A stretch of 64,000 nucleotides of DNA. It comes from Eledone cirrhosa. Taxonomy: Eukaryota. Made by a program: the position numbers and the translations under genes. Positions 2,023 to 59,310 of this stretch are shown here, piece by piece (position 1 is the first letter of the stretch; each line of letters starts with the position of its first letter). Below the pieces are notes generated by a model. The model did not search any database, had not been told where the DNA came from, and was given only the letters and a program-made list of their open reading frames with translations. The stretch spans positions 312,852,001-312,916,000 of the forward strand of contig OZ024742.1 in the NCBI GenBank assembly GCA_964016885.1. Reading direction: 5' to 3'.

Positions 2023-5000
2023 TCAGCATGTACCCATGGGAGGTCGGGTACCCTGTATTACTGCGTGACGCCAGAAGTCACGGTCGTGTGTCATTGACTT
2101 TGAGAGGTGTAGTTGGGTAAGGTCGGCTTTTATCACCTCATCCCAAGTCATCTTGGGTCTCCCCACTCCGCGGTTTCCATCAACTTCTAGTGCTCTGCAC
2201 CTTTTTATGCAGCTGTCATCCTTCATACGCATCACATGTCCATACCAGCGTAACCGCCTCTCCTGCACGCAGCATTTGATTCCTCTTATGCTCAGTCTCT
2301 CTCTCAATTCATTTATGCTTTGTCGTTCACGTATATTACTGTTACACATCCATCGGAGCATGCAGGCTTCGTTTCTCTCTAATCTACGTAAGTCTTCCAC
2401 CTTCAGCGCCCAGGTCTCACTACCATGCAACATCGCTGTTCGGATACACGCATCATACAGTCTGCCTTTCATTCTGAGGGAGAAGCCTTTTGCAGCTAGC
2501 AGTGGTAGTAGTTCCCTAAACTTCTTCCATCCCGTTCTTACCCTAGTTATTGTACTTTCTGAGCACCCACCTCCGTTGCTAATTCGGTCACCTAGGTAGC
2601 AGAAGCTGTCTACTGTTTCTACAGGGCCCTCCCAGAGATTGGTGGTACTTGTTTCCTGTGGCTGTTTGCTTGCTGTTTCAGCACAGCTGCTGCATGTGAA
2701 TCCTACATTCTTAATTAAGCTTCCTGAGATCCCGCTACATCTCTTGTGTACCCATTGTTTGCATTTGGGGCAAAAAATGGAGTTCCTACCTACACCTTTC
2801 CTACATACTGAGCAAGGCCATTTCCCTGAGGGGATCTGGGTTCTGTTTTCTCGTCTACTTATAAGGACCTTAGTCTTTGTCATGTTGACTTTGAGGCCCT
2901 TTCTCTCTAGTCCCTGCTTCCAGGTTTGGAATTTATTCTCTAGTTCTACCATAGATTCAGCTATGAGTGCGAGGTCATCAGCATACAGGAGTTCCCATGG
3001 GCATCCGGTCTTAAACTCCTCCGTTATTGCCTGCAGGACTATGATGAACAGGAGAGGGCTAAGAACAGAGCCCTGGTGGACCCCAACCTGTACGCTAAAT
3101 TCCTCGCTATACTCATTGCCAATCCTAACTTTGCTGACTGCTCCCCTATACATGGCTTGTACCGCTTTCACAAGCCATTCATCTACTCCTAGTTTTCTAA
3201 GAGCCCACCAGATTACTGCACGTGGAACTCTGTCAAAGGCTTTCTCAAGGTCGACAAATGCCAAGTAGAGTGGCTTACTTTTAGCTAGGTACTTTTCCTG
3301 TAATTGCCTCACAAGGAAGAGCGCATCAGTGGTGCCTTTCCCTGGAACAAACCCAAATTGCATCTCGTCTATATTCACCCGGTCCCTAATCAGCTGTGCT
3401 ATAACTCTTTCTGTTACTTTCATGACCTGGTCCATCAACTTTATACCTCTATAGTTTCCTCTATCTAGTGCATCGCCTTTACCTTTGTAGCAGTTGACAA
3501 TGATGCTACTGCACCAATCTTTTGGTATGGCCCCCTCTAGTATTACCTGGTTAACGATACGTGTGGTTATAGTGTGACCTACAGACCCAGATGCCTTCAG
3601 CATCTCGGCAGCTATACCCGATGGACCGGTTGCCTTCCCTATCTTCATATCTCTGATTGCCTTACTTACTACGCTGCCGCTGACTTGTACTGCTGGTCCC
3701 TCTATAGGGTCTACGTGGGGTAGGGTCTCTTCTTCCCATGCATTCTCCTCATTTAGTAATCTATCATAATGACTCTTCCATGCATCTTTCTTCTCAGCAC
3801 TTGTGAGGGCAAGCTCACCTTTATCATTCCGGATACACTTCTCTCCAATGACATCACAACTATCTCTGACACACTGCCTCGCAATCTTGAATACCTCCTG
3901 TTTCTGGTCCTCACGTTGTAAAACATGCTTGAATTTTCTATCCTCTGCTTCACTCCTAGCTAAGTATACTTGTCGCCTAGCTTCCCTCTTGGTCTCTATG
4001 TAATGTACCCTGCTCCCCCCGTTCTTCCATTCTTTCCATGCCTGTCTCTTGGCCTTGACTGCTTCATCTACCTTATTGTTCCACCACCAAGTCACTCTCC
4101 TCCTGCTTGAGGTCTTACTCCAGCCACAAACCTCATCCGTCGCCTCTAGTAAGTTATTTTTTAGGAACTCCCAGTTCTCTTCTACGTTAAATGTCTCTAT
4201 CTGTTCTTCTTTACTGTCGTAGGCGTTGAGTAAAATATCTTTAAATCTGTTACTGGTTGAGGGGACTTTCAGCTTCCAGATCTTTCTTCTCCAGGTTGGC
4301 CTCTGTTTCAGGGCTCGTCTAGTTCTGACCGTGAGGTCGCTGACAACTAAGCTATGTTGGGATGTACATTCCTCACTAGGGAAGGCTTTTGTGTTTACGA
4401 CCGTCCATCTGTCACGTCCTCTGATGAGGATAAAATCTAACTGACTAGAGTGCTCCCCTGATCTATAGGTGATCAGGTGGTTGTCGGGTTTTTTAAAGTT
4501 TGTGTTACATATCGACATGTCATTGGCGTCGCAGAATTCTAGAAGTCTGAATCCTTCCTTATTCCTTGTGCCAACTCCATGGCCTCCATGTACTCTATTG
4601 AAGCCGTCGCAGTGTTTACCTACGTGTCCGTTAAAATCTCCTGCAATGATTAGGAAGTCCTTGTCGTCTGTTAGAGCAGTAGTGTGTATTAGGGACTCGT
4701 AAAACCTATCCTTAAGTTCGTCTGGCAGCCCCGATTGGGGTGCGTAAGCTGATATTATTGTGGTAATTGTCTTATTCAGGACTAGTCTGAGTTTAATGAT
4801 TCTTGCATTTACCCTGTACACTGAGATTACTTTATCTACCCACTTGTCAGCTAATAGTATACCTACACCACCCATCCCATCGTCATTTCCCACCCAGAAA
4901 AATTTGTAGCACTGGCTTTTTCCTACAAGGACTCTAGCAGACCCTCCTCTCCATCTAGTCTCTTGCACACAGCATACATCAACTTCCTTTCGCTCTAGCA

Positions 5001-5031
5001 TTTCTACGATTTCTCCTGCTCTTCCTTTCAT
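2023..5031 (-). CDS. RTE LINE polyprotein: APE endonuclease + reverse transcriptase + PHD-like Cys/His finger
   Basis: 1002-aa uninterrupted ORF. APE motifs VQETRW, AYAPQ, GDFNGHVG, LDFIL, SQH; RT motifs NYRGIKL, QFGF, FVDLEKAFD, GVHQGSVLSP, YADD; finger CSVC..CPKCKQWVHKRC..CSSC; RTE C-terminus RRLRWYGHVMR..GRPKMTW. Confidence 0.95.
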   Translation of the reverse strand: MKGRAGEIVEMLERKEVDVCCVQETRWRGGSARVLVGKSQCYKFFWVGNDDGMGGVGILLADKWVDKVISVYRVNARIIKLRLVLNKTITTIISAYAPQSGLPDELKDRFYESLIHTTALTDDKDFLIIAGDFNGHVGKHCDGFNRVHGGHGVGTRNKEGFRLLEFCDANDMSICNTNFKKPDNHLITYRSGEHSSQLDFILIRGRDRWTVVNTKAFPSEECTSQHSLVVSDLTVRTRRALKQRPTWRRKIWKLKVPSTSNRFKDILLNAYDSKEEQIETFNVEENWEFLKNNLLEATDEVCGWSKTSSRRRVTWWWNNKVDEAVKAKRQAWKEWKNGGSRVHYIETKREARRQVYLARSEAEDRKFKHVLQREDQKQEVFKIARQCVRDSCDVIGEKCIRNDKGELALTSAEKKDAWKSHYDRLLNEENAWEEETLPHVDPIEGPAVQVSGSVVSKAIRDMKIGKATGPSGIAAEMLKASGSVGHTITTRIVNQVILEGAIPKDWCSSIIVNCYKGKGDALDRGNYRGIKLMDQVMKVTERVIAQLIRDRVNIDEMQFGFVPGKGTTDALFLVRQLQEKYLAKSKPLYLAFVDLEKAFDRVPRAVIWWALRKLGVDEWLVKAVQAMYRGAVSKVRIGNEYSEEFSVQVGVHQGSVLSPLLFIIVLQAITEEFKTGCPWELLYADDLALIAESMVELENKFQTWKQGLERKGLKVNMTKTKVLISRRENRTQIPSGKWPCSVCRKGVGRNSIFCPKCKQWVHKRCSGISGSLIKNVGFTCSSCAETASKQPQETSTTNLWEGPVETVDSFCYLGDRISNGGGCSESTITRVRTGWKKFRELLPLLAAKGFSLRMKGRLYDACIRTAMLHGSETWALKVEDLRRLERNEACMLRWMCNSNIRERQSINELRERLSIRGIKCCVQERRLRWYGHVMRMKDDSCIKRCRALEVDGNRGVGRPKMTWDEVIKADLTQLHLSKSMTHDRDFWRHAVIQGTRPPMGTC

Positions 5032-5458
5032 TGAGCCTACATTGATGGTACCAACTCGGAGTTTTGGGCATTTGTCGACACTCGTAGGGGAGGGTCTCTG
5101 GGTTGGCGCTTCACGTGGGTGCTTGGTAGCTCGCAGATTCCTATTTCATCTATTGATTCAGAGTTGCTCGTGTATTCCCAGCTCATCCATCCCTAACGGT
5201 GGGAAAATTGAGGGCTAGAAGGACAGTGGTGGTGGGGTAATGGCAGGGTGTGTTGGGATGCGCCAGAGGAGGAGAGAGTTAGTTAGGCAGGTAGTAGCAG
5301 CAGCAGCAGTGGAAATGGCATGCTAGGTTTGATTGGTCGAATAGACTATGGTGGTGTGTGGGGGTGGGGGGGGAGGGAAATTGTGAGGTAGGAACTGAGG
5401 GTCGCATGGTAAATATCCAAGTTAATACTACATCAGTAAAATTAACAATAATAACGTC

Positions 5459-5851
5459 ATGAAAAAAGCTACTAAGAGAAACCCTCGAAAATTTATCGCT
5501 AATACAGCAGGGAAAATTTAACGCTAATACAGCAGGGAACATCATAATATTAACGACATGAAAAAGCTACTAAGAGAAACCCTCGAAAATTTATCGCTAA
5601 TACAGCAGGGAAAATTTAACGCTAATACAGCAGGGAACATCATAATATTAACGACATGAAAAAGCTACTAAGAGAAACCCTCGAAAATTTATCGCTAATA
5701 CAGCAGGGAAAATTTAACGCTAATACAGCAGGGAACATCATAATATTAACGACATGAAAAAGCTACTAAGAGAAACCCTCGAAAATTTATCGCTAATACA
5801 GCAGGGAAAATTTAACGCTAATACAGCAGGGAACATCATAATATTAACGAC
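5459..5851. repeat. 4 x 98-bp tandem repeat in the 5' region of the RTE LINE
   Basis: Unit ATGAAAAAGCTACTAAGAGAAACCCTCG...CATAATATTAACGAC starts at 5459, 5558, 5656 and 5754; copies essentially identical. Confidence 0.95.
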
Positions 5852-6649
5852 AATATGTAGGCTAAAATACCTTCGTAGATTAGGTGGATGGCTGGCTGGG
5901 AAAATTTGAATCAGCTCTAGTGGTACATTTTAGCAGAGAAGAATGGCAAAGTGTCTTATCTCTTCAATATTTTCAGATTGAATGAATTAGGTTAAAGACA
6001 GGGTAGTAAGCCTTAAATATATATATTATATATATATATATATAATATCTCACACATATCTTTGAGTAGTGCTTTACTTCTAAACTATGAATATTCATAG
6101 AAATTTTAGTTCATTTGTACCCTTAATATAACATAAAAGACAAATTCCTTTTTTAACATATTCATAATTGTATATTGTTATCAACATAAAAAAGTATTGT
6201 TTTCTTGGATAGATATAACCATAAACTAGCAAATAGTTTTAAGTTATGAATTTAAAGATATAATACAAAAGGTTTTATGTGTGATTAACGTGAAATTGTA
6301 AAGCTGCTATTGAGGCTAACACTGGTGTGAAATTATTCTGAAAAAGTTGTAAATATCTACATTGTTAATGTGTAAAATAGTGTAAGATAGTGATGAAATA
6401 AACCAGATTTACTCTGCTTTTTAAATTGTCACACATCATTGAGAAAAGGCAGGAAGTAAAATGCATACAGAAGTAATTTGTTCTGGATGAATGATGTGCA
6501 ATTTATATTGAAGTACTCTTAACATAATTCCAACAAATTTATACAGTCTGCACTTTTGAGAGAGATTTGTTGTTGCCATACACTTAACCGACACTGATTT
6601 AGGCCACTGAAACACATAAATAAATATACCAAACAACAACAACAAGCAT

Positions 6650-15715: not shown

Positions 15716-18700
15716 TACCACTATATAGATATAGAGCCACTATATAGATATAGAGCCACTATATAGATATAGAGCCACTATATAGATATAGAACCACTAT
15801 ATAGATATAGAGCCACTATATAGATATAGAGCCTCTATATAGATATAGAGCCACTATATAGATATAGAGCCACTATATAGATATAGAGCCTCTATATAGA
15901 TATAGAGCCACTATATAGATATAGAGCCACTATATAGATATAGAGCCTCTATATAGATATAAAGCCACTATATAGATATAGAGCCACTATATAGATATAA
16001 AGCCACTATATAGATATAAGCCACTATATAGATATAGAGCCACTATATAGGTATAAAACCACTATATAGATATAGAGCCACTATATAGATATAGAGCCAC
16101 TATATAGATATAAAGCCACTATATAGATATAAAGCCACTATATAGATATAAAGCCACTATATAGATATAAAGCCACTATATAGATATAGAGCCACTATAT
16201 AGATATAAAGCCACTATATAGATATAGAGCCACTATATAGATATAGAGCCACTATATAGGTATAAAACCACTATATAGATATAGAGCCACTATATAGATA
16301 TAAAGCCACTATATAGATATAAAGCCACTATATAGATATAAGCCACTATATAGATATAAAGCCTCTATATAGATATAGAGCCTCTATATAGATATAGAGC
16401 CACTATATAGATATAGAGCCACTATATAGATATAAAGCCACTATATAGATATAAAGCCACTATACAGATATAAGCCACCATATAGATATAAAGCCACTAT
16501 ATAGATATAAAGCCACTATACAGATATAGAGCCACTATATAGATATAGAGCCACTATATAGATATAAAGCCTCTATATAGATATAGAGCCACTATATAGA
16601 TATAAGCCACTATATAGATATAAAGCCTCTATATAGATATAGAGCCACTATATAGATATAAAGCCACTATATAGATATAAAGCCACCATATAGATATAAA
16701 GCCACTATATAGATATAGAGCCACTATATAGATATAGAGCCAATATATAGATATAAAGCCACTATATAGATATAGAGCCACTATATAGATATAGAGCCAC
16801 TATATAGATATAAAGCCACTATATAGATATAGAGCCACTATATAGATATAAAGCCACTATATAGATATAGAGCCACTATATAGATATAAAGCCACTATAT
16901 AGATATAGAGCCACTATATAGATATAAAGCCACTATATAGATATAAAGCCACTATATAGATATAGAGCCACTATACAGATATAAAGCCACCATATATAGA
17001 TATAAGCCACTATATAGATATAGAGCCACTATATAGATATAGAGCCACTATATAGATATAGAGCCACCATATAGATATAAAGCCACTATATAGATATAGA
17101 GCCACTATATAGATATAAAGCCACTATATAGATATAGAGCCACTATATAGATATAAAGCCACTATATAGATATAGAGCCACTATATAGATATAAAGCCAC
17201 TATATAGATATAGAGCCACTATATAGATATAAAGCCACTATATAGATATAGAGCCACTATATAGATATAGAGCCACTATATAGATATAGAGCCACTATAT
17301 AGATATAAAGCCACTATATAGATATAAAGCCACTATATAGATATAGAGCCACTATATAGATATAGAGCCACTATATAGATATAAAGCCACTATATAGATA
17401 TAGAGCCACTATATAGATATAGAGCCACTATATAGATATAGAGCCACTATATAGATATAAAGCCACTATATAGATATAGAGCCACTATATAGATATAGAG
17501 CCACTATATAGATATAAAGCCACTATATAGATATAGAGCCACTATATAGATATAGAGCCACTATATAGATATAAAGCCACTATATAGATATAGAGCCACT
17601 ATATAGATATAGAGCCACTATATAGATATAAAGCCACTATATAGATATAAAGCCACTATATAGATATAGAGCCACTATACAGATATAAAGCCACCATATA
17701 TAGATATAAGCCACTATATAGATATAGAGCCACTATATAGATATAGAGCCACTATATAGATATAGAGCCACTATATAGATATAGAGCCACTATATAGATA
17801 TAAAGCCACTATATAGATATAAAGCCACTATATAGATATAGAGCCACCATATAGATATAAAGCCACTATATAGATATAGAGCCACTATATAGATATAAAG
17901 CCACTATATAGATATAAAGCCACTATATAGATATAGAGCCACTATATAGATATAGAGCCACTATATAGATATAGAGCCACTATATAGATATAAAGCCACT
18001 ATATAGATATAAAGCCACTATATAGATATAAGCCTCTATATAGATATAGAGCCACCATATAGATATAAAGCCTCTATATAGATATAGAGCCTCTATATAG
18101 ATATAAAGCCACCATATAGATATAGAGCCACCATATAGATATAAAGCCACTATATAGATATAAAGCCACTATATAGATATAAAGCCACTATATAGATATA
18201 AAGCCACTATATAGATATAAAGCCACCATATAGATATAGAGCCACTATATAGATATAAAGCCACTATATAGATATAGAGCCACCATATAGATATAGAGCC
18301 ACTATATAGATATAAAGCCACTATATAGATATAGAGCCACTATATAGATATAGAGCCACTATATAGATATAGAGCCACTATATAGATATAGAGCCACTAT
18401 ATAGATATAAAGCCACTATATAGATATAGAGCCACTATATAGATATAGAGCCACTATATAGATATAGAGCCACTATATAGATATAGAGCCATTATATAGG
18501 TATAGAGCCACTATATAGATATAGAGCCACTATATAGATATAAAGCCACTATATAGATATAGAGCCACTATATAGATATAGAGCCACTATATAGATATAA
18601 AGCCACTATATAGATATAGAGCCACTATATAGATATAGAGCCACTATATAGATATAAAGCCACTATATAAAGCCACTATATAGATATACAGCCACTAAGT

Positions 18701-18745
18701 ACTGTTAAAGCCACTATATAGATATACAGCCACTAAGTACTGTTG
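15716..18745. repeat. 19-bp minisatellite CCACTATATAGATATA(G/A)AG, ~155-160 copies, ~3 kb
   Basis: Direct reading; period 19; two dominant variants; internal palindrome CTATATAG. Confidence 0.97.
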
Positions 18746-43189: not shown

Positions 43190-43434
43190 CCACACACACA
43201 CACACACACACCCACACACACCCACACATATAAATACACACACATGCATGTGAGTGTATGTGTGTATGTATGTATGAATGTATGTATTTATGAAATGAAG
43301 CACCAGTGAACAGAAAAACAATCAGTAGGGCTAAAATTCCTGACTAAATTAAAATCTCTAAAGTTATTTGATAGGGAATTATTTGTTAAGGTGAATAAGA
43401 AAAAAAGATGATACTATTGATGATGATGATGATG

Positions 43435-43464
<30 letters not shown>

Positions 43465-43466
<2 letters not shown>

Positions 43467-45702
43467 GACAGTACAGAGGGAGATCGGTGAGCAGGCACAG
43501 CAACAGACTGATTTGAGTATCACAGTTGAAACTCTTAAGGGGCAAGCCAAAAAACTAACCAACTGGAAATCACCAGGCCCAGATGGTGTGCAGGGGTATT
43601 GGATTAAACATTTAACATCCCTCCACCCGAAGCTGACGGCCATGTTCAATGACTGCTTGGTGTCGGGTGAGGTGCCAGAGTGGTTGACAAAAGGTACCAC
43701 AGTTCTGATAATGAAAGACCGAATCAAGGGTAATGATGCTACCAACTATAGACCTATCACATGTCTGCCCGTAATGTGGAAACTGTTGACGAGCATTGTG
43801 TCTGAGGAAATCTACCATCACCTCCACACAAACAACTTGTTACCGGACGAACAGAAAGGATGCCGAAAGAAGTCACGTGGTACAAAGGACCAGTTGCTTA
43901 TTGATAAGATGGTAATGGGGAATTGCAGGAGGAGACACACTGATCTTGCCATGGGATGGATAGACTACAGAAAGGCATTTGACATGGTGCCTCATTCCTG
44001 GATCACCAAAAGCCTGGAGATCTTCAGGGTGGCAGATAACATCAGACAGTTGCTAGGCAGGAGTATGGGGTCCTGGGAGACAGAGTTGACATCAACTGGA
44101 GTATCCTTGGGAAGCGTGAAGATCAAGAGAGGTATCTTCCAGGGAGATAGCCTGTCCCCTCTGTTGTTTGTCCTTGCCCTGATGCCCTTGACCATTATGC
44201 TGCGAAAAGTGAGAGCAGGATACAAGTTGGGAAGGGGAGAGCTTACCATCAATCACCTCCTCTTCATGGACGATCTTAAGCTCTTCGGGAAAAGTGAGAA
44301 GGAGTTGGATGTGCTTGTTGACACTGTCCGTATTTTCAGCAGTGATATATGTATGCAGTTTGGTATTGGTAAATGTGGAGTCATTGTGATGAAGAGCGGT
44401 AGGTTGAGCAGAAGTAACGGGATCCAGATACCAACAGGTGAGATGATAAAGGAAATTGACTCTGAGGAAGGATACAAGTATTTGGGCGTTCTGGAGGCTG
44501 ATGGCATAAAGAACAAAAAAATGAAGGAATTGTTAAGAACTGAATACATTCGGAGAGTAAGGAGCGTATTGAAGTCACATCTGAACAGCAGAAATGCCAT
44601 AAGCGCAGTAAATTCCCGAGCTGTGTCTATTATTAGGTACAGTGCGGGAATTCTGAGATGGAATGTTGCTGAACAAAAAGAAATGGATAGGAAGACTAGG
44701 AAGCTATTGACTATCTACAACATGTTCCACAAGAGGAGTGATGTCGATAGACTCTACCTAAGGAGATCTGAGGGTGGAAGAGGTCTTATCAGCATAGAGG
44801 ACTGTGTTCAGATGGAGAAAAACAACCTATACAAATACGTGACCTATAGTAAGGAGCCAATGCTCAGAACTGTACTGAAGGAGGGGACAGTAGGCCAGGG
44901 GATGTCCAGGGAGGAAATAACATCAAGGAGGAAGAGCAGCCTTAAGGGAAAATCCCTTCATAGTACCTTCTTTGAGAAAACTGAATTTAGAGATCCACAG
45001 ACATGGAACTGGTTGAGAAGAGGAGACCTCAAAAAGGCTACAGAAGGAATGCTAATGGCTGCGCAGGAGCAGGCCCTCAAAACGAAGTGGTTGAAGCACC
45101 ATATCTACAAGGAGGAGGCTAGCCCACTGTGCAGGATCTGTGGAGAGAGAGAGGAGACTGTGGCTCACATTGTGTCCGAGTGTAAACACCTAGCCCAGAC
45201 CCACTATAAGGGCTGGAGACACGATGTGATGGGCAGGGTGATCCACTGGCACCTGTGCAAAGTAAACAATCTACCACATTCTGAGAAATGGTATGAGCAT
45301 AGGCCAGAGGCGGTGATGGAGAACAATCAGGTGAAGGTGCTGTGGGATTTTAGGATACAGACGGACAAAAAACTGAAACACAATAGACCTGACCTGGTGG
45401 TTGTGGACAAAGAAAAAAGATCGTGCCTGATTGTGGATGTGGCCTGCCCGTTCGACACGAGAGTGCAAGAGAAGGAGAGGGAGAAAATTAACCGATACCA
45501 GGACCTAAAGTGGGGGGTGAAAAGGATTTGGAACTGCCATGAAGTCAAAGTGATCCCGATTGTCATAGGCGCACTGGGGACTATCTCCAAAAGTTTCCAG
45601 GGATGGTTAAAGAAAATCGGCCCCTTCACGCTTTTTGGAACGCTTCAAAAGGCATGCTTGCTTGGAACAGCAAGAACCCTCCGATACGTCCTGAATATCT
45701 GA
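43465..45702 (+). CDS. RT - CCHC zinc knuckle - restriction-like endonuclease (uninterrupted, N-terminally truncated)
   Basis: [53 protein letters not shown]...C, RHD, RPDLVV, DVACP, KINRY. The N-terminal M/I run of the called ORF is only microsatellite. Confidence 0.88.
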
Positions 45703-46038: not shown

Positions 46039-49000
46039 TTACAGGCATATACTCAGAGTAGGCCCATTCACTCGGGCCATATTTGCTTCTCTCACCCATC
46101 TTTCAACAAAATGCTGGGAAGAGAGCACCTCCCTCTCTACCCTGATTTTCCTTTTCAAATGAAATTTGAAAAAGTTAATCAGGGCATCACCGAAGAGGTA
46201 AGTGCTCGTTTTCAGCCCTTTCAAACGTGTCCACCACACTATCTCTTTCGCCATGGCCACCAGACAGATAAAAACTGCCTGTCCTTCCCGGCTAAAAGAA
46301 GAGGGCGGGGCAATCCTCACGATGGACTCAGATGATAGCCGGATCCGTCCTACACGCGACAGCAGGTGTTCGACATAAACCCACAAGTCAGCAATTTTCG
46401 GACACTGAACGAGTGCGTGCAGGACGGTTTCGTCGCCCTGCGCGCATCTCGGACATGCCCGGCTGACGGCACCTCCATGCCTGTAGAGTTTATCCCGAAC
46501 TGGCAAGGCTCCTCGGTAGCACTGCCAGGCCAGAGATTTCTGGAAGTTGTCCATAGGTCCCGGCCCGAAAGTTCTCCCGAAGAGATTGGCTAGTTGATTT
46601 TCGTCGACGCCTAGAGTTTCCCCAAGTACGTCGTCGCGCTTCCCCTCCACTAATCCTCTATAGAACGCCGAGGTGGAGTTTCCACCGATCACATTGCCCG
46701 ATTGGTCGAGGGCTGTGAGCGCCTGAAAACATTCCAGTCTCCAGGCGCTCCCTCTCGGTCTTCGCTTGACCCAGGACTGCAGCTCCGTCAAGGAAACGAG
46801 CTGGGGAAATACGTGTCTAGCAAACGGCGACCACACCTGATCACCGTCGAGGAAGAGGTGGAGATGTCGTAGCCTGAGCGCGTGTCTGCGCATCATCAGC
46901 CACGGCATTCCCAGCCCTCCACGTAGCGGGTGTTGACAGCAGATGGACCGCCTGACCATCGGAGCGCGTCCCTTCCACAAAAAGCGAAAGAGCAAACGCT
47001 CCAGCGCAGTCAGGCGAGGCTTAGGACAAGGTACGACGGTCAGGCGGTAGCAGATGACAGACGCGATGTACGCGTTAGCCACCTCCGCTCGACCTTTCAG
47101 GGATAGCTTCCTCTCCGCCCATTTCTGGGTGAGAGAAGCCACCCTGCTCGTCACCTCGTCCCAGTTTTTGTCCGTCTGGAGGTCCGGACGGAACCAGACC
47201 CCTAGCAATTTAACCGGTCCGTCCGTCCAGCGTCCGACGACGCTGTTGGACGGCATGGACCTGCCTCTCCAGGTGCCGAGCTGCAGGCCCACTGACTTTT
47301 CCTGGTTGATCATTGCTCCTGTCACCGCTTCGTATTCTCTTAGTGTAGTGCCGATTGCCTCGATGTGTTTGGCGTTCGACACCACTACGGTGACATCGTC
47401 CGCATATGCTGACACGGATCTTCCGCATCCTAGTTCGCGCGGGACGCCCCTCAACGTCTCCAGTTTGTGCAGTAATGGCTCGAGAGTCAATACGTACAAG
47501 AGGGACGAGAGGGGACATCCTTGGCGGACCGAGCGCATGATGTTGAACGGTTCCGACAGGTGACCGTTCACTCTCACCACAGAGCAGATGTCGCTGTGCA
47601 TGGCAGCGATCCAGCCTCTGAAGACGGGCCCAAAACCAGCCGCCCTCAGGACTGCCGCTAGGTAACGATGGTCGACTCTATCGAAAGCTTTCGACTGATT
47701 TAAATTGATCAAGGACCCACCCGTGCCAGGTTCCATAGCTACCCTCTCTACGATGTATCGCATGAGGTGGAGGTTGTCGTGGATGGATCTGTCGGGAATG
47801 GCGCATGTCTGCGCCTCTCCCACCAGACCACCAACGACAAGCGCCAACCTCTTTGCTAGCACCTTGGCCAAAATCTTGAACTCTGTGTTTAGCAGAGTTA
47901 TGGGCCGGAAATTATCTATGTTATCCCCCTTGTTCGGATCCTTTCTCAGCAGTGCCACCGCTCCTCGGCTCACAGAACTGGGAATTCTCCCGTTCTGTTG
48001 CCAGTTGCAGTAGACGTCCGCCAAGAGGCCTCCGAACAAGTCTGGCATCTGTACGTAAAGTTCATAGGGCAGACCATCCAAACCAGGCGATTTACCCCTT
48101 GTGCAGCCAGTCATTGCCTCCCTTACTTCAGCGGCTGTTATCGGCTTTTCGCAACACTCCGCCTCAGTGGCCGAGAGCCGCGGCAGTCCGTCGAGGTAGA
48201 CACTAAAGTCCATCCCTCGACCCGGCCCACCGCTGCCCCCGAACAGCTGAGCGAAGTGTCGCTGAAAAGCTTCACACATTTTCCCGGGATCGAGTAGCAT
48301 GCGCCCGTCGTGGTCCACCAAAGACCGGATCGTGTCTTTGTTGCCACGACGCGCCTCCGCCACTCGGGCCCATTGAACGGCTTTCGTCCCCTCGTGTCTG
48401 AGAGCACGCACCCTTGCTCTGACAACGCAGCCTTCGTGCTTTGCATTGAAGAATTGGTCAAGGGCCAATTTCGCCGCAAGCACGTCGGTCGCAATGCCTT
48501 TGCTAAGCGCCTCGTCTAATTTTCTAACTAGTTCTCCCTCTGCTCTATTTTTCTCTATTGCTAAAGCCTTACTAAACCTAATGGATTCTATTCTAATCGC
48601 TCTTTTCAGAGCAAACCACCACTTGTTGTTGACGATGGCCCCCGTCAACGCCCGCTTAACTAGTTCGCTAATCCGGTCTCTGTAGGCCTTGCGCGCTGGT
48701 AAGGACGCGTTTAGCTTCCAGTAGCCGGGTCCTCGTCTATGAAGCCTATCTAAGTCAAGCACACAGATCACGAATTTGTGGTCCGTGTAGCTGACTATCT
48801 TGAATTGTGGACAGCCTATGCTAGACCTATCTATTTCCCTACAAAATACTCTATCTAGATATGATCTGGATGACCCTATGCGATTTGTCCAAGTCCACAT
48901 TGGCACATTCGGGAAATCCAATCGGTACCTGTCAGACAGTTCAAAACGCCTGAGCAGGTTGGTGAGGCTCTTGCACCCTCCACCCCTATCCGCTAATCCC

Positions 49001-49458
49001 ACACAGTCCCAGCGTGCATCTAAGATCCCGTTCCAGTCGCCCACTAACACTAAAGAGCGGGACGTTCCAAGAAAGGTCTCCAGACGCCGGAAGAAATCAG
49101 GCCGCCCTGCTCCTGTCGGGGCATAGACGGCCACTAGCCTGAAAGCTTGCCCGTCTCCGCTGGTCACGTCCAGCACCACCAACTTACCCTCTGGGTCCAG
49201 GAAGATGGCCCGTATGGCGAGATCCAAACCTCTCCGAAAAAGCACAGCAACTCCTCCCCCCGATCCAGGACGGCTGGGAGATGCGTACACATCGTAGCCG
49301 CCGAAGATCGGTGCGAAGGCCCGTGCTTCGGAGAATCTGGTCTCGCTGATGGCCACTACATCTATGTTTAGTGACCTGAGGTCGTTGAGCAGGTGACCCT
49401 GCTTCCACGACGACCCCAAGCCACGCGCATTTATGCTGCCTATTCTGAGTGAGGCCAT
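46039..49458 (-). CDS. Tx1/L1 ORF2: APE endonuclease, RT, C-terminal CCHC (zf-RVT)
   Basis: 1139 aa. SINARGL, ISET, VYAP, GDWN, YLDRV, TDH, YWKLN, KSPGLDG, FRPITLLN, KAFDRV, VRQGCPLS, YADD, GGLG, CPRC..H...C. Confidence 0.95.
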   Translation of the reverse strand: MASLRIGSINARGLGSSWKQGHLLNDLRSLNIDVVAISETRFSEARAFAPIFGGYDVYASPSRPGSGGGVAVLFRRGLDLAIRAIFLDPEGKLVVLDVTSGDGQAFRLVAVYAPTGAGRPDFFRRLETFLGTSRSLVLVGDWNGILDARWDCVGLADRGGGCKSLTNLLRRFELSDRYRLDFPNVPMWTWTNRIGSSRSYLDRVFCREIDRSSIGCPQFKIVSYTDHKFVICVLDLDRLHRRGPGYWKLNASLPARKAYRDRISELVKRALTGAIVNNKWWFALKRAIRIESIRFSKALAIEKNRAEGELVRKLDEALSKGIATDVLAAKLALDQFFNAKHEGCVVRARVRALRHEGTKAVQWARVAEARRGNKDTIRSLVDHDGRMLLDPGKMCEAFQRHFAQLFGGSGGPGRGMDFSVYLDGLPRLSATEAECCEKPITAAEVREAMTGCTRGKSPGLDGLPYELYVQMPDLFGGLLADVYCNWQQNGRIPSSVSRGAVALLRKDPNKGDNIDNFRPITLLNTEFKILAKVLAKRLALVVGGLVGEAQTCAIPDRSIHDNLHLMRYIVERVAMEPGTGGSLINLNQSKAFDRVDHRYLAAVLRAAGFGPVFRGWIAAMHSDICSVVRVNGHLSEPFNIMRSVRQGCPLSSLLYVLTLEPLLHKLETLRGVPRELGCGRSVSAYADDVTVVVSNAKHIEAIGTTLREYEAVTGAMINQEKSVGLQLGTWRGRSMPSNSVVGRWTDGPVKLLGVWFRPDLQTDKNWDEVTSRVASLTQKWAERKLSLKGRAEVANAYIASVICYRLTVVPCPKPRLTALERLLFRFLWKGRAPMVRRSICCQHPLRGGLGMPWLMMRRHALRLRHLHLFLDGDQVWSPFARHVFPQLVSLTELQSWVKRRPRGSAWRLECFQALTALDQSGNVIGGNSTSAFYRGLVEGKRDDVLGETLGVDENQLANLFGRTFGPGPMDNFQKSLAWQCYRGALPVRDKLYRHGGAVSRACPRCAQGDETVLHALVQCPKIADLWVYVEHLLSRVGRIRLSSESIVRIAPPSSFSREGQAVFICLVAMAKEIVWWTRLKGLKTSTYLFGDALINFFKFHLKRKIRVEREVLSSQHFVERWVREANMARVNGPTLSICL

Positions 49459-49493
49459 GTTTAAAATAGAGTGGAAAAGATGGGAAAGACCAC

Positions 49494-51543
49494 TTACCGT
49501 ACTTTTCGTAGAGGAGGGATGGTTTTTCCATCCCTTTTCACTTGATCGTCTGGTGAAGGGACCGTTGAATCGTCCCTTCGGCTGGTCGTCGGCTCTTCTA
49601 TGAGTATGTCCGAATATACTCTTCGGTTGAGTGTCCCTCCTAGGTCTCTGAAATCACCAACTGCGTTGGGGAATTTCGTTTTCATGTTTGTGTATTGTTT
49701 CTGTGCTATTTTTAGCAGTCTTATGTTAGTTGGCGTTTTGATTGGTGCTGGTATTATGTAGACGTGTTGTGAAATGTCTGTGTGTTCAATTATGTAAGTC
49801 ATTAGTTTCTTGTGTGTATTTATTGCCGTGCATTTGTTTTTCTGGGGGTGGGGTGTGGTTCTGCTATTTTCTTGTCGTTGTTGCTGGGTGAGTGTGTTTT
49901 GTTGTTGTGTTTGCGATGTTGGTGCTTGTGGTGGTGGTGTTGAAGGTGTTGTTGGCGGTGGGGTTGTCGCCGGTGGTGATGGTGGTGCTAGTGTGGGTGG
50001 TGATGATGTTGGTGGTGTTGCTGTGAGTCTCTTTGCAGTAGCCTTTACCCTTTTTTCATTTCTTTCCTCCCTTTTCAAAGGCGACGATGCGCTGCTTCTG
50101 CGTTTGTGCCTTCTTACGACCTTTTGCCACCCCTCTCCCACCTCACACTCCATGTCTGATTATGTGAGGTCGGGGAGGGGTACCAGCTCCACTCTTTCAC
50201 TTGTTGATGATGTTTGCACTGGAGTCTCTGTTGCAGCTGCATTTGGTATTGCTGTTGTTGTTGTTAATACTTCCACTGTTGCTGCTGTTTTTGATTTCCG
50301 TGGCGTGGGTATGGGTGCCGCGGACCTATCGTTCCTGGTTGCCGCTTGTCCTGTTGCTGGTAGCCGTGGAGCCGGTTTCGGAAGGAGGGGGGTTTTCTCC
50401 TTTCTCAGGGTCTTCTCGTTGCAGAAGGCCCTGAGGTGAGTCTTCGATCCACAGCGAAAGCATTTCGGGCGTTTGCCCTCAACACTTATGGGCAGTTGAG
50501 TGCCGTTATCGAAGTCTGTCACATCCGGGATAGCTTCGATACACTCCTGGTTGGTTTGGATTAACATCTCAATGGAGATGCCGACCCAATCTTCTCTTAC
50601 TTTTTTCTGTACTTGCAGTACAGTTGTTTTGTCCTCGATTCCGACGAGGACAGACACGGCCAGCCAAGAAGGGGCCATCCGGGGGGGGGGGGTCTGTTTG
50701 ACCCTCACAATTTTTTGCCCGCAGTAGGAGGGCACCAACACCATTTCCTCGCTCCTTAGGGTCACTAAGGATTGAGCCTTTGCCTCTGGGGTGTAGCAAA
50801 AAGTACGTCTACGGTGGCATATTTCTTGCCTCGGGTGATGTGCGTTTTCCGCTGCCACACAGACCCCAAGGCTTTTTGTATTTGAGCTTCTGTGGCTCTT
50901 TCAACCCTACGGGATTTTGTACTTACTGTACGGTACGTGACCGTACAGTGCTGTTGGGTTTCGAAAAAATTTTCCGCTCCCTTGCAGATTGCTCGGTGTC
51001 CAGTTTTTGTCACCATCTTCTTCGCTTCCTCTAATTCCTCATTTGTTATGAGGATGGTTTCCAGGTTCTTTGCGATACCTGCAAACGAGATTGGTTTTTC
51101 TTTGCTGCTGTTGTTGTTGTTGTTGTCATCAGAGCTGCTGTTACTTTTGTTGTTGCTGCAGGTACTACGACTACTGCCGCCGCCAATGCTGTTGTTGTTT
51201 ATGCTGCTGCTGATGCTGTTGCGGCTGCTACTGTTGTTTTCCTTGTCAGTGTTGCTGTTGTTATTACGGCTGCTACTGCTATTATTTCTGACGTCAGACG
51301 AATGAAATGGGTTTTCGTATTTCCCGCACACCTGTTTCGTCGTTGTCGTCGTCGTGGTGGAGAAATCTTGCTCGCTTTGCACGTGATTTGCTTTTCTGGC
51401 GTCGCTTGCGAAAGAGAAGGGAGGGAGAGAGACACATTTAGAGAAGGGAGGGAGAGAGACAATCTTCTCTCTGCTGTAGTGACGATTGAGGAAGAAGACG
51501 GAATGAGTGGGAGTGACCTATGAAAATTCTTTTTCGTAGCCAT
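49494..51543 (-). pseudogene. Tx1 ORF1 (gag-like, CCHC knuckle), disrupted
   Basis: Pieces 51382-50765, 50858-50160 (CFRCGSKTHLRAFC) and 50153-49494. Frameshift near 50790; in-frame TAA at 50160-50162; start position uncertain. Confidence 0.75.
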
Positions 51544-51800
51544 GTTGTTTTTTTGTTTAAAATAAATATTGGGCACAAAACCCCTATAGGCGGTTATTTA
51601 ACCCCGAAGGGCCAAATAACGGGCAGAAAGACCCCTCTCACGAGGAGGAGGGTGTTTTTGTCTACAAGTTGGTTAAAGTTTTAAACAATTTACAATTGTT
51701 ATAGCGGTCAAAATTTACAATACCTTACAGAGCCGAGCCTCCGTCAACCATAGCATTCAATAATAATAATAATAATAGTAATAATAATAATAATAATAAT

Positions 51801-53899
51801 GTCAGGTGAGGTACCAGAGTGGTTGACAAAAGGTACCACAGTTCTGATAATGAAAGACCGAATCAAGAGTAATGATGTTACCAACTATAGACCTATCACA
51901 TGTCTGTCCGTAATGTGGAAACTGTTGACAAGCATTATGTCTGAGGAAATCTACCATCACCTCCACACAAACAACTTGTTACCGGACGAACAGAAAGGAT
52001 GCCGAAAGAAGTCCCGTGGTACAAAGGACCAGTTACTTATTGATAAGATGGTAATGAGGAATTGCAAGAGGAGACACACTGGTCTTGCCATGGGATGGAT
52101 AGACTACAAAAAGGCATTTGACATGGTGCCTCATTCTTGGATCACCAAAAGCCTAGAGATCTTCAAGGTGGCAGATAACATCAGACAGTTGTTGGGCAAA
52201 AGTATGAAGTCCTGGGAAACAGAGTTAACATCAGCTGGAGAATCCTTGGGAGGCGTGAAGATCAAGAGAGGTATCTTCCAGGGAGATAGTCTGTCCCCTC
52301 TGTTGTTTGTCCTTGCCCTGATGCCCCTGACCATTATACTGTGAAAAGTGAGAGCAGGATACAAGTTGGGAAAGGGAGAGCTTACCATCAATCACCTCCT
52401 CTTCATGGACGATCTTAAGCTCTTCGGGAAGAGTGAGAAGGAGTTGGATGTGCTTGTTGACACTGTCCATATTTTCAGCAATGATATATGTAGGCAATTT
52501 GGTATTAGTAAGTGTGGAGTCCTTGTGATGAAGAGGGGTTTAATGAGCAGAAGTAACGGAATCCAGGTACCAACAGGTGAGATGATAAAGGAAATTGACA
52601 CTGAAGAAGGATACAAGTATTTGGGTGTTCTGGAGGCTGATGACATCAAGAACAAAAAAATGAAGGAATTGATAAGAACTGAATACATTCGGACAGTAAG
52701 GAGCATATTAAAGTCACATCTGAACAGTAGGAATGCCATAAGTGCAGTAAATTCCCGAGCTGTGTCTATTATTAGGTACAGTGCGGGAATTCTGAGATGG
52801 AATGTTGCTGAACAAAAAGAAATGGATAGGAAGACTAGGAAGCTATTGACTATCTACAACATGTTCCACAAGAGGAGTGATGTCGACAGACTCTACTTAA
52901 GGAGATCTGAAGGTGGAAGAGGTCTTATCAGCATAGAGGACTGTGTTCAGATGGAGAAAAACAACCTACACAAATACGTGAGCCAATGCTCAGAACTGTA
53001 CTGAAGGAGAGGACAATAGACCAGGGGAATGTCCAAGGAGGAAATAAAAAGGAGAAAGAGCAGCCTTCAGGAAAAATCCCTTCATAGTACCTTCTTTGAG
53101 AAAACTGAATTCAGAGATCCACAGACATGGAACTGGTTGAAAAGAGGAGACCTTAAAAAGGCTACAGAAGGAATGTTAATGGCTGCGCAAGAGCAGGCCC
53201 TCAAAACAAAGTGGTTGAAGCACCATATTTACAAGGAGGAGGCTAGCCCACTGTGCAGGATCTGTGGAGAGAGAGAGGAGACTGTGGCTCACATTGTATC
53301 TGAGTGTAAACACCTAGCCCAGACTCACTATAAGGGCTGGAGACATGATGTGATGGGCAGGGTGATCCACTGGCACCTATGCAAAGTAAACAATTTACCA
53401 CATTCTGAGAAGTGGTATGAGCATAAGCAGAGTCGGTGATAGAAAACGATCAGGTGAAGGTGCTGTGGGATTTTAGGATACAGACGGACAAGAAACTGGA
53501 ACACAATAGACCTGACCTGGTGGTTGTGGACAAAGAAAAAAGATTGTGCCTGATTGTGGATGTGGCCTGCCCATTCGACACGAGAGTGCAAGAGAAGGAG
53601 AGGGAGAAAATTAACCGATACCAGGACTTAAAGTGGGCGGTAAAAAGGATTTGGAACTGCCATGAAGTCAAAGTGGTCCCGATTGTCATAGGCGCACTAG
53701 GTACTATCTCAAAAAGTTTCCAGGGATGGTTAAAGAAAATTGGCCCCGCCACGCTTTTTGGAACGCTTCAAAAGGCATGCTTGCTGGGAACAGCAAGAAC
53801 CCTCCGATACGTCCTGAATATCTGAGGCTGCAGGTAGTGGCTTGATATTCATTTCAACAAACTTTCCAGTTAACTAACATCAATGACTGAGACTCAAAG
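51801..53899 (+). mobile_element. Second, disrupted R4/Dong-like element in (TAA)n
   Basis: Colinear with 43663-45777; CGA>TGA at 52342, ~13-bp deletion near 52981, frameshift near 53426; (TAA)n flanks. Confidence 0.9.
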
Positions 53900-54804: not shown

Positions 54805-55920
54805 ATTGATTTCTACTTAAGGCACAAGGTCTTTTGAGGGGTAGGGTAGAATCGATTAAATCTGCCCCAATTGTTGATTGATAATGTAGTTTATTGAACA
54901 TGAAAAGATGAAAGTCAAAGTTGATCATGGCACGGTTTGAACTCAGAATGTAAAGAGCCAACAAAATACTACTATGTTGGTTGTCTGACACTTTAATTCT
55001 GATAATTAATGATGATGATGGCAACAATAATAATGGTTTGGAATTTAGGCACAAGGCCAACAATTTTGGGGAAGAGAAAGTTGATTAAATCAACTCCAGT
55101 GCATAACTGGTATTTTATTTTATCAACCATGTAAAGATGAAAAGCAAAGTTGACCTCAGTGGGATTTGAACTCAGAACGTAAAGGGCCATATCTATATGT
55201 TGCCTAGCATGGTGTCTGATGCTCTACTGATACTACCAATCCACCAATAATAATTGTTTCTACTTCTTGTACAAGGCCAGCAATTACTCAGTGCATTACT
55301 GGTACTTTATTTTATCGACCCTGTAAGGATGAAAGGCAAAGATAACCTCGGCGGGATTTGAACTCAGAATAGCAAGGGCCGTAACTCTATGTGTCAAAGC
55401 ATGGCATCCGACCCTCTCCCGATACTGCCAATCCACCAATAATAATAAGGGTTTCTTATTTAGGCACAAAGCCAGCAATTTGGAGGGGGGTCAAGTCGAT
55501 GAAACTGACTCCAATGCATTACTGGTATTTTATTTTATCGAGTCTGTAAGGATGAAAAGCAAAGCTAACCTTGGCAGGATTTGAACTCAGAACATAAAGG
55601 ACCATAACTCTGTGCTGCAAAGCATGGTATCTGATGCTCTAGCAATACTGCTAAACCATATCAATAATAATAATAATTGTTTCTACTTTTGGCACAAGGC
55701 CAGCAATTACCCAGTGCATTACTGGTACTTTATTTTATCGACCCTGTAAGGATGAAAGGCAAAGTTAACCTCAGCGGAATTTGAACTCAGACCATAAAGG
55801 GACGTAACTATGCTGGAAAGCATGGCGTCCGACCCTCTACCGATACTGCCAATCCCCAAACCATAGCAATAATAATAATAATTGTTTCTACTTTAGGCAC
55901 AAGGCCAGCAATTACCCAGT
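54805..55920 (-). mobile_element. Head-to-tail array of ~5.5 SINE B copies of differing divergence
   Basis: Repeated (AAT)n-TGTTTCTACTT..GCACAAGGCC..GATGAAAGGCAAAG..TTTGAACTCAGA..GCCAATCCACC units. Confidence 0.88.
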
Positions 55921-56059
55921 AATAATGATTTCATTTATTTGCCACAAGGACACTAGAAGAAAGGGACATTACAAGGACAGATAACAGGGTATAGAGGTTT
56001 ACATAGAGTATTAAATGATTGATTAATGATTTGAAAAAAAAAGGGGGTTATGTAACATA

Positions 56060-56257
56060 TGAGGGTGGGCTGAAAAGTTCATAGGCTGATTATGAAAGTG
56101 CAATGCTAGAGCTGCACAATCTTGCATATATTAATTTCAACTTTTCTTGTTAATAATTGCATTGTTTCTTTCCAGGGACTATGTTGAAAAAGAAACCTCA
56201 TTTGGTCATTCCATGAGAGCATCTTGGTCAGCCTATGAACTTTTCAGCCAACCCTCA
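56060..56257. mobile_element. Mariner-type MITE, 198 bp
   Basis: TA flanks; 30-bp TIR TGAGGGTGGGCTGAAAAGTTCATAGGCTGA with 1 mismatch; resembles the TIR of 358-1273. Confidence 0.88.
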
Positions 56258-56574
56258 TACATATATATGTGCAGTATATATAGTACATATAATAAAGCAG
56301 TCCGCCTTATACAGATGAACGTTAAAAAAGGAATGAGTGAGGAACCCCACTAGTCCACGGTTACCATGACTACAAAGGGCAAGTGTTCTCTTCACGAAAA
56401 GGGACTCCTTTTCAAATTTACAAGCTTGTACTGAGAGTAGAACTGTTCTCGCACACACACACACAGACCATATATTAAGAAGAGCACTAACCGAAATGTA
56501 CGATAAAGTTATATTTGTATACAAACAGAGTGTGGAACCGAGACTGCACTAATGTGTATATATATATATATATA

Positions 56575-57300
56575 TAAATATAAAGGTTTACATATACATA
56601 AAGTCATAGATATATATGTTGCAACCGGTCACGTTGTGGCTCAATGAAGAATTAATAAATTATATAATCAGAACAATATATCATAAATCATGTCCTTAGA
56701 ATTATTAGATAAAATATATACCATTTCCTCTCCCAATTAGCATAATTAACCATATAAAAAATCATTTAGACCAGGCTATAAGAATAATGGCTCCTCTGAA
56801 GAAATTTCCGACAAATAACCGAAACCGGCCTCTTCGCGGTGGCCCCAATAGAGTATTTATCCAACATTTTAACAGCATGTAGAAACTGACTAAATATACC
56901 GTCAACCATACACAATTAGGTGTAAATTCAAACTTAGAAGAAATGTGTACATACCGTAATTATATCTCTACCATGGTTTCGTCCGTATTTTTAGACATCC
57001 AATTATCAGGATATATCCGGAGTAACAGACTCATCAGGAGAAAACTCAAAATTAGACATTTAATTTTCCAAAGTGATCGCGCCAAAAATAGATTCAAAAA
57101 TGGCTAAGAATCGTGACGTGGCAGTGATCAAGTCAGAAAGAATGTGATTAGTTGCTTACGGTGGGTAGGCTTGTTGCTAGAAAGCGCAGCCCAATATCGC
57201 CCAATTGTATCTCAACCTAACGGGAGATTATTAAATATAAAGATTTACATATACATAAAGTCATAGATATATATGTTGCAACCGGCCACGTTGTGGCTCA

Positions 57301-57302
<2 letters not shown>
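56575..57302. mobile_element. Non-coding hammerhead-bearing element with 71-bp terminal direct repeats (retrozyme/Penelope-pLTR-like), in (TA)n
   Basis: Direct repeats 56575-56645 and 57232-57302 (2 mismatches, period 657); internal hammerhead; no ORF. Confidence 0.65.
56965..57041 (-). ncRNA. Type-I hammerhead ribozyme with an enlarged stem II
   Basis: Minus strand: TCTC-CTGATGA-GTCTGT-(~38 nt)-ACGGAC-GAAA-CCATGGT-A-GAGA. G10.1-C11.1 pair present, palindromic ACCATGGT stem III, GUA triplet. Confidence 0.8.
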
Positions 57303-57335
<33 letters not shown>

Positions 57336-57802
57336 TATTGAAGATGTAGGCATGTAAACTTGGCAGAAAATACAAATTTCCCTGTAAATTGAGAAAATGA
57401 TTTAATCGATTTTTAAACCTAGTTGGGACCTCATCAGAAGACGTGTACATCAAAACAACCACAAGGAAACATGTATTTGATGAGATTATATACCCATTCA
57501 CTCTTAGTATTATTCTAAAATAGACATTCTAATTTGCACTAATTTACACTCATTTTGATAATTAATTAAGATACATAACGTCTGTCTTCCACATTATGTG
57601 GCTATTAATGTCTGGTTGCATAAGCTTAATTTGGGAAATAGGCAGTCTGCATATAATTTGACAAATTTGAAGGGTGACTATGGTTTGTTTGGCAGGAGTC
57701 ATGGCTACAGATTGTCATTCCGTATTTGCTGTGTGAGGGTGGGTAGGTTGATTGGAGCAATAATGGTCTTATTTATGAGTGTGTGTGTATATATATATAT
57801 AC

Positions 57803-58391
57803 ACAGTCTCATAAACACCATGTGTTTAGATGACCATGGTTCTTATGAGGTTGTTTGCTTACAAACATAGTGAAAATTTATAATAATATAATATAATTGT
57901 TTCTACTTTAGGCACAAGGCCAGCAAATACCCAGTGCATTACTGGTACTTTATTTTATCGACCCTGTAAGGATGAAAGGCAAAGTCAACCTCGGCGGGAT
58001 TTGAACTCAGATTGTAAAGGGACGTAACTATGCTGGAAAGCATGGCATCCGACCCTCTATTGATACTGCCAATCCACCATAATATAATGTTATATATATT
58101 GTGTTACACACAAACAACGGTCAGCAGAGGCCACGTACCGTTCCTCTCCGACAGATAACTTTCTCCCCCGGAAAACCCCCCAGTTGATGGATGCGATATA
58201 TATATATATATATTCCAAACCCATGCTAGCGTGGAAGATGGACGTTAAACGATGATGATGAGATATATATATATATAACATATATATATATATAGCATTA
58301 TATTATATTATTATAAATTTTCACTATGTTTGTAAGCAAACAGCCTCATAAGAAACATGGTCATCTAAACACATGGTGTTTATGAGACTGT
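57803..58391. repeat. ~90-bp inverted repeat pair separated by SINE B and other insertions
   Basis: 57803-57892 versus 58298-58391 are near-exact reverse complements. Confidence 0.8.
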
Positions 58392-59251
58392 TTGCTTGCA
58401 AACAGACCAAATATTAATAATATCATGGCTTAGAGCATTGGCCTTGCAATCGAAAGGTTGTGAGTTCAATTCTCAGACCGAGTGATGTATTGTTTCCTTG
58501 AGCAAGACACTTTATTTCACATTGCTCCAGTTTACTCACCTGTAGAAATGAGATGATAGGGACTGGGGTCCCTATCATTCCACTGCAAAGTGGTTGTGGA
58601 GGTGCCACAACAAAAAAAGCACCCAGCACTCACTGTAAATGAGGTTGGTGTTAGGAAGGGCATCCAGCTGTAGAAATCAAGCCAGAATCAGTTCCTGTCC
58701 CACCCTTGCAAGCAGGGAAAAAGCGGACGTAAAATGAAATGATGATAATGATGATGATGATTCACTCATGAGGGCGGTGGATTGGCAGTATCGGTAGAGA
58801 GCTGAACACCATGCTTCACAGCATAGAGTTACAGTCCTTTACAGTCTGAGTTCAAATCCCGCCGAGGTTAACTTTACCTTTCATTCTTACAGAGTCGATA
58901 AAATAAAGCACCAGTAATGTACTGGGTTTGATTTAATTGATTTTCCCCTCCCCAAAATTACTGGCCTTGTGCTTACACTAGAAATCATCATTATTGGATT
59001 GGCAGTATCGTTAGAGGGTCGGACGCCATGCTTTGCAGTACAGTTACGTCCCTTTACGGTCTGAGTTCAAATCCCGCCGAGGTTAACTTTGCCTTTCATC
59101 CTTACGGGGTCGATAAAATAAAGTACCAGTAATACACTGGGATAATTGCTGGCCTTGTGCCAAAAGTAGAAACAATTATTATTTACTCAAGTATATATAT
59201 ACAATGATATTAAATAAATGGAAACTATATTTATAAAACCATATTTATTCT

Positions 59252-59310
59252 ATTATATATACTGTATTTCAAGGGTACCAAAACTTTGGTATGCTCTCAT
59301 CAGATAAAAT
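59252..59310 (-). ncRNA. Degenerate hammerhead candidate
   Basis: CTGATGA-GAGC[ATACCAAAGTTTTGGTAC]CCTT-GAAA-TACAGTAT-A; stem I poor. Confidence 0.45.

Follow-up and report, generated by a model that had tools for sequence, protein, structure and literature searches.

The window analyzed here, a 64,000-nucleotide stretch of contig OZ024742.1 from Eledone cirrhosa, contains at positions 56575..57302 a 728-bp element that carries a hammerhead ribozyme motif and sits in a (TA)n tract, which raises the question of how such an element moves. The original prediction described a retrozyme-like element of possibly viroid-like character and did not note the Penelope-type anatomy of the insertion, the chief pointer to how the element moves. 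The explanation that we favor, with moderate confidence, is that 56575..57302 is a non-autonomous passenger of Penelope-like elements (PLEs) whose template was a monomer RNA processed by the ribozyme and probably circular.

The insertion arm at 56575..57302 (minus strand, the putative RNA sense) comprises a non-coding 657-bp repeat unit (56575..57231) and 71 bp of a second lap (57232..57302). Unit coordinates (q) used below are window positions minus 56574. The predicted 71-bp direct repeats with a period of 657 are present (56575-56645 versus 57232-57302, 69/71 identical), and (TA)n is seen on both sides, at 56557..56574 and 57303..57325 (no strand assigned), with no distinct target-site duplication readable. 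The repeats are the overlap created by one partial second lap and are not LTRs; this second lap, a pseudo-LTR (pLTR), has a variable, 5'-truncated end with an AT overlap into the (TA)n. The reported lack of an ORF was confirmed, the longest stop-free frame being 74 aa with the unit junction included. The copy starts at a site in (TA)n that we call site A, runs one lap through the ribozyme cut site, and stops 71 nt into the second lap; its length of 1.1 laps of 657 bp supports the earlier view of a cDNA-type copy of slightly more than one lap, and the non-coding unit with its conserved minus-strand hammerhead supports the classification as a non-autonomous hammerhead retroelement. As it carries one hammerhead, this copy could yield a short RNA only and could not release a full monomer. 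One contig joint from 56518 to 57357 skips the whole insertion (with 26 letters on its shorter side, in two runs from a single sample), and this joint was not recovered at 99% likeness; we therefore do not claim an empty allele and regard the joint as a hint at most.

The canonical minus-strand hammerhead of the original prediction was found to be sound. It is of type I (56965..57041) and consists of a 4-bp stem I (57041-57038 with 56968-56965), the core CUGAUGA (57037-57031), an extended stem II (57030-56981), GAAA (56980-56977), and stem III (56977-56970), which is palindromic (ACCAUGGU). The stem II domain spans 50 nt, in agreement with the enlarged stem II noted earlier. Self-cleavage is predicted after GUA, between 56969 and 56968 (q395/q394), and the ends of other copies pile up at 56968 (q394), as described later. 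An Rfam scan of 56500-57400 left the hammerhead undetected, even at E<=10, and its folding energy alone is ordinary (z -0.93). It is accepted here because it is conserved and covarying: among 20 aligned hammerheads, 91% of cells are paired, compared with 24-47% in slid controls, and 6 of 19 pairs have changed on both sides, four of these in basal stem II, in an alignment in which several rows were chosen for changes near the cut and with a covariation shuffle that ignores relatedness. Stem II is closed by G-C in 74 of 129 distinct hammerhead regions, by U-A in 24, by A-U in 15, and by another combination in 16, and the commonest forms of stem III plus cut site end in GUA (89) or GUC (21). The cut triplet swaps GUA for GUC, and the NUH rule allows both. 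When the hammerhead was searched with a short stem II instead, six matches were obtained, all of them family copies with deletions. A 29-mer from stem II of the 56575..57302 copy matched only itself, since this copy has its own variant there.

The window has further hammerhead-like motifs that belong to other families, at 33736 (-), 59303 (-), and 43020 (+), and TA-rich or simple-repeat DNA follows each of them within about 150 nt; the regions at 59303 and 43020 recur at other loci. Small hammerhead elements in TA tracts seem to be numerous in this genome. Four long frames are present, at 2023-5145 (-; 1040 aa), 43399-45702 (+; 767 aa), 46039-49653 (-; 1204 aa), and 51754-53004 (+; split, 196+219 aa), which we take to resemble LINE reverse transcriptases. 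Tandem repeats occur at 15718-18735 (a 19-bp unit x159, 93% match) and 5447-5852 (a 98-bp unit, four times). Inverted repeats that resemble the ends of small DNA transposons were seen at 57803-57897 / 58297-58391 (95 nt, 98%) and 56058-56089 / 56228-56259 (32 nt, 97%), and a SINE-like repeat of roughly 200 bp, very common among the loci examined, has clustered copies at 55022-55927, 57893-58078, and 58776-58997.

The element is not single-copy. A 28-mer near one of the two start sites described below (site B; q107-134) has 935 exact matches in the 3.0-Gb genome and a 28-mer from the hammerhead has 196, with no matches for reversed-pattern controls of either, and a genome search with the unit gave 40 scored copies at 93-97% identity from 4981 candidates. 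The 657-bp family comprises about a thousand dispersed insertions with 90-97% identity. Sister families at about 85% and 75% identity have the same plan; a 690-bp sister family (L260-L268, L361, and others), about 75% identical, is cut at GUC instead of GUA according to its sequence and has a different stem II base together with a tail that measures about 125 nt. Contigs from three or four public sequencing runs of one study contain the family. An 85%-identical subfamily forms a 30-kb array of about 46 units (G000:C1:92,985,600-93,016,050; L364-L367), in which neighboring units diverge by 5%, the same as distant ones. A DNA search with a 2.3-lap copy detected nothing above about 3 laps; the same search missed this array and is therefore no evidence against arrays, including arrays of the subfamily to which 56575..57302 belongs. 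We found no description of the 657-bp family in a literature search that covered mainly papers outside subscription journals.

The ends of the insertions were read in a position-ordered sample that included all loci in the first 100 matches of the q107-134 28-mer (contig C1; 70 loci, 122 arms). Arms begin at q1-4 in 46 cases (site A), at q99-104 in 61 (site B), and elsewhere in 15, so the circularly permuted endpoints that had been anticipated were not found: 107/122 arms start at one of two fixed sites. Site A (56575..56582, minus strand), which the 56575..57302 copy uses, shares an ATATA overlap with the (TA)n target and is the putative reverse-transcription start; site B (56676..56682, minus strand; q102) has an ATATAT overlap. 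The 101 nt that separate the two sites (56575..56675, minus strand) form a “tail,” and inverted insertions have it on one arm only. Far ends are spread across the unit; 33 of the 107 fixed-start arms reach the second lap, and arms extend up to three laps. When fixed-start arms only are considered, the 70 loci comprise 35 inverted pairs, 34 single-arm insertions, and one three-arm insertion, and wherever both arms of an inverted pair come from fixed sites, the combination is A+B (35/35). In a wider set of 248 loci, a TA run lies just upstream of 274/290 fixed starts. Read along the minus strand, both fixed ends come 3' of the hammerhead, which points to this strand as the template.

If the ribozyme cuts this template, the cut RNA has its 5' end at q394, and cDNA arms would be expected to stop there. 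We searched for q375-394 followed by a non-family base and read every one of the 73 matches: 20 are true ends at q394, and 53 continue (mostly the GUC sister family, with some point changes). The family base follows q394 in 1055 matches, array units included, so that about 1128 matches reach q394. At the local rate of 0.0023 ends per nt, about 2.6 ends would be expected; the 20 observed are a floor, since ends followed by T escape the pattern. The position-ordered sample has 3/49 arms ending at q394, one of them ambiguous. The case for cleavage is weakened by a control position 3 nt away, which gave 33 matches, of which 30 were viewed and 13 were ends, these being counts that carry no denominator. 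Control ends run straight into TA in 10 cases and not in three, whereas 18/20 of the q394 ends do not. Inverted insertions account for 13 of the q394 ends, and in 9/13 the other arm stops at q370-390, though 5/35 inverted pairs have near-symmetric ends away from the cut as well. About 98% of arms cross the cut site with an intact junction. We read the pile-up at q394 as a genomic trace of cleavage, and on this basis the ribozyme is likely to have cut in vivo. A literature search that covered mainly papers outside subscription journals brought up no case in which genomic ends accumulate where a PLE or retrozyme is cut. At one locus (L036), an inverted arm begins at q395, which corresponds to the 3' end of the upstream cleavage product, right after (TA)n; this is a single case, and TA overlap also explains it.

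Two fixed starts, variable ends, and inverted arms of the A+B type together are the pLTR-plus-tail signature of PLEs. The PLE literature describes partial tandems, an inverted 5'-truncated arm, a tail at one end, and microsatellite targets (PMC8557442, PMC3846280), as well as two adjacent internal starts for the reverse transcriptase (RT), which extends both strands of the target (PMC11167929). The genome itself contains such elements. A GIY-YIG scan produced 10596 candidates, and the loci that were read fall in several PLE families; the locus L257 carries an intact endonuclease-bearing PLE with a 905-aa RT plus GIY-YIG frame, and there are several more frames of 900-905 aa. Two autonomous PLE families of the genome have a hammerhead-like motif, ends about 45 nt apart, and (TA)n targets. 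One autonomous family (L257:1110-3824, L255, and L258), which has the 900-905-aa frames and a hammerhead-like motif, is apparently young; its tandem units measure 3127 bp, and 44 nt separate its two ends. Site A resembles the end of one PLE family over 7 nt, a stretch that we consider too short to carry weight. The 657-bp unit has no frame for RT and GIY-YIG such as defines an autonomous PLE. Two points weigh against the PLE link: none of the 50 GIY-YIG loci compared showed significant DNA similarity to the unit, nearby family copies aside, and the 101-nt tail is longer than published ones (30-40 bp) and than those of the two local PLE families (roughly 45 nt). The 657-bp family is, very probably, non-autonomous and mobilized by PLEs.

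How multi-lap arms arise can be addressed by comparing laps within insertions, a comparison that retains one tandem pair that is two separate insertions. At subfamily sites, tandem laps differ in 48/629 cases and inverted arms in 25/540, compared with 43% for different insertions; rare variants are common to tandem laps in 10% of cases, to inverted arms in 17%, and to different insertions in 1.2%. Rare variants are shared in over half of the tandem pairs (37/70), and 23 of these variants are found no more than three times across the family. In 24 three-way comparisons (1431 sites, a small test), the second lap was the odd one 14 times, compared with 26 and 26 for the others, which is contrary to a linear copy of an aged tandem. 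The homogeneity of laps within insertions fits one monomer that would have been read repeatedly, and from these patterns we lean slightly toward a circular template for the multi-lap arms.

The same PLE passenger could also have spread without circles, its multi-lap copies coming from uncut linear read-through of tandem loci or arrays and its ribozyme trimming some 5' ends only. Several observations give this reading real weight, although we consider it rather unlikely. The array of roughly 46 units, which has PLE-type ends, makes linear multimeric transcripts possible; at one locus (L023), successive laps carry two different subfamily haplotypes, and at another (L020), the same core change (G8 to A) is found in both arms, which fits an uncut template or later gene conversion. 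A candidate internal promoter (57070..57215, minus strand) is suggested by motifs that we take to be E2F-like and CCAAT-like and by a weak, post hoc cluster of nine first-lap ends at 57072-57088 (q498-514), which may reflect a transcription start and uncut linear transcripts. In vitro work on a lizard PLE describes uncut RNA as the main substrate of the purified protein and priming without homology (PMC11167929). Against linear read-through, array neighbors differ by 5%, yet laps in dispersed insertions differ by 4.0% and inverted arms by 3.4%, so that laps show no excess, and laps share private variants over many haplotypes. With lap divergence this low and private variants shared, the linear model needs frequent steps from monomer to multimer.

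It is highly improbable that the copies are the 5'-truncated 3' ends of an unseen autonomous PLE, with the unit as its long pLTR. The insertion anatomy would be identical, 12/143 arms that reach the unit end do not continue into the next unit, and the search for an autonomous partner compared 50 of the 10596 GIY-YIG loci; within those 50, neither blastn nor a DNA profile gave significant DNA similarity to the unit, nearby family copies aside, and the best match outside family copies had an E of about 0.06. Against this reading, arms that reach the unit end continue into the next unit in 131/143 cases, up to three laps, and no coding continuation is common to 95 free flanks. Five PLE proteins gave no match to the unit or to these flanks.

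Spread at the DNA level, as a satellite or DNA transposon in which the hammerhead is passive, is scarcely credible. The higher-order repeats of 5-6 units within the long array do indicate DNA-level expansion, but even this array is bounded by site B within (TA)n on one side and by an inverted arm from site A on the other, and it is apparently a satellite born from one insertion; one-sided truncation and ends at the RNA cut site point to reverse transcription.

The original prediction also included a degenerate second hammerhead at 56790..56856 (+), which we reject. Its letters are present, yet both halves come from changes almost private to the 56575..57302 copy: the base at 56796 that completes CTGAAGA occurs in 2/35 aligned units, and the base at 56825 that completes GAAACC in 1/35, this one unit being the 56575..57302 copy itself. 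DNA contigs from a public run have another base at both positions in almost all of their depth, stems I and II of the motif are unable to form, and the motif is absent from the 690-bp sister family. The apparent ribozyme on the plus polarity is thus the chance product of two substitutions, and the viroid-like reading falls with the plus-strand motif. The probability of an endogenized viroid-like RNA, with ribozymes in both polarities and RNA-to-RNA replication, is practically nil: the minus-strand circle does fold better than 40 shuffles (z -3.6), but the plus strand folds no better than its shuffles (z +0.6), 33/35 units lack the motif at one site and 34/35 at the other, and the fixed starts indicate a single template polarity, so that at the sequence level this reading is refuted.

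For the PLE passenger with a probably circular template, the following sequence of events can be proposed. The minus strand would be transcribed and the ribozyme would cleave at GUA; loci with at least two hammerheads would release the 657-nt monomer, which a host ligase could close. A PLE protein (GIY-YIG plus RT) would nick one or both strands of (TA)n, and cDNA synthesis would be primed inside the RNA at site A or B, aided by the TA overlap of 5-6 nt. Cut linear RNAs would give arms of up to 293 or 394 nt, circles would give multi-lap arms, and the cDNA ends would be joined to the target or to each other. The full version, in which a PLE protein begins cDNA at two fixed points inside a 657-nt circle produced by the ribozyme and runs several laps from both target strands, with cut but unclosed RNAs leaving the 293- and 394-nt copies that end at the scissile bond, is put forward tentatively, as a proposal that we would not yet back at even odds.

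If this proposal is true, it joins the circular-RNA and PLE models and means that the hammerheads of PLEs are active in vivo; rolling-circle reverse transcription may then be the general origin of PLE tandems and pLTRs. The literature names two linked open questions: the enzyme and mechanism by which animal retrozymes move, and the in vivo cleavage of PLE hammerheads together with the reason for tandem and inverted PLE copies. Both the retrozyme class and the suggestion of a link to PLEs have been published, and the main value of the family is as a mechanistic record: the twin starts on a non-coding unit, the ends at the scissile bond, and the shared private variants are insertion-level evidence on retrozyme mobility and PLE cleavage. 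The unit is also a short template with defined starts for a circular-versus-linear test using purified PLE protein.

Among known systems, plant LTR retrozymes and Avsunviroidae, as generally described, are similar to the family in monomer size, possession of a hammerhead, and a proposed circular intermediate. The family differs from them in having a type I rather than a type III hammerhead, no LTR, PBS, or PPT, and no opposite-strand ribozyme; a plant LTR retrozyme has type III hammerheads in its two LTRs, whereas 56575..57302 has one type I hammerhead outside its repeats.

Animal non-LTR retrozymes have been described as circRNA-forming repeats with type I hammerheads, with PLEs proposed as their mover (PMC7229834; Cervera and de la Pena 2020). 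In a 2026 preprint, Li, Clavereau and Pollet (10.64898/2026.07.22.740005) make the case that they derive from PLEs and are non-autonomous, with the mechanism left as an open question. The preprint gives consensus lengths of 51-972 bp and a mean of 650 bp for retrozymes of ray-finned fish, so the size of the present element, greater than that of most animal retrozymes according to the original prediction, is not exceptional; of the retrozyme dimers tested there, 1/9 cleaved. Short palindromic stems III and dimer activity were known before (PMC4209133), and the main text of an octopus repeat annotation makes no mention of ribozymes. The 657-bp family shares with animal non-LTR retrozymes a non-coding low-GC unit, a type I hammerhead, a short palindromic stem III, a range from monomers to multimers, and co-occurrence with PLEs. 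Tandem copies with at least two hammerheads, by which these retrozymes are defined, are represented by dimers, 3-lap copies, and the roughly 46-unit array. They are further defined by the lack of an LTR and by a target-site duplication that, if present, exceeds 4 bp; here, the repeat is a partial lap, and a duplication is unreadable inside (TA)n. Unlike animal retrozymes that form plain arrays, the family consists mostly of dispersed insertions of 0.1-3 laps with fixed PLE-type starts and a 50-nt stem II domain. Homology to PLE termini is reported in the preprint for 24/57 Xenopus retrozyme families, whereas none was found for the 657-bp family in the 50 loci compared.

Non-autonomous Chlamys elements such as MRC1 resemble the family in being PLE passengers with pLTRs and head-to-tail insertions (PMC8557442). 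In the same account, unlike the 657-bp family, Chlamys elements generally resemble the 3' end of their autonomous partner, and their clade is described as one without canonical hammerheads. The family also differs from PLEs as they appear in print in having no coding frame, a tail of 101 nt rather than 30-40, and starts with a TA overlap of 5-6 nt to the target. In the 657-bp family, genomic ends accumulate at the predicted cut, whereas the lizard study, as reported in PMC11167929, had no RNA reads beginning or ending there. With endonuclease-bearing PLEs as described by Frangieh 2024 (PMC11167929), Craig 2021 (PMC8557442), and Arkhipova 2013 (PMC3846280), the family shares twin internal RT starts preceded upstream by a hammerhead, a tail at one end, 5' truncation, partial tandems, an inverted 5'-truncated arm, and AT-rich or (TA)n targets.
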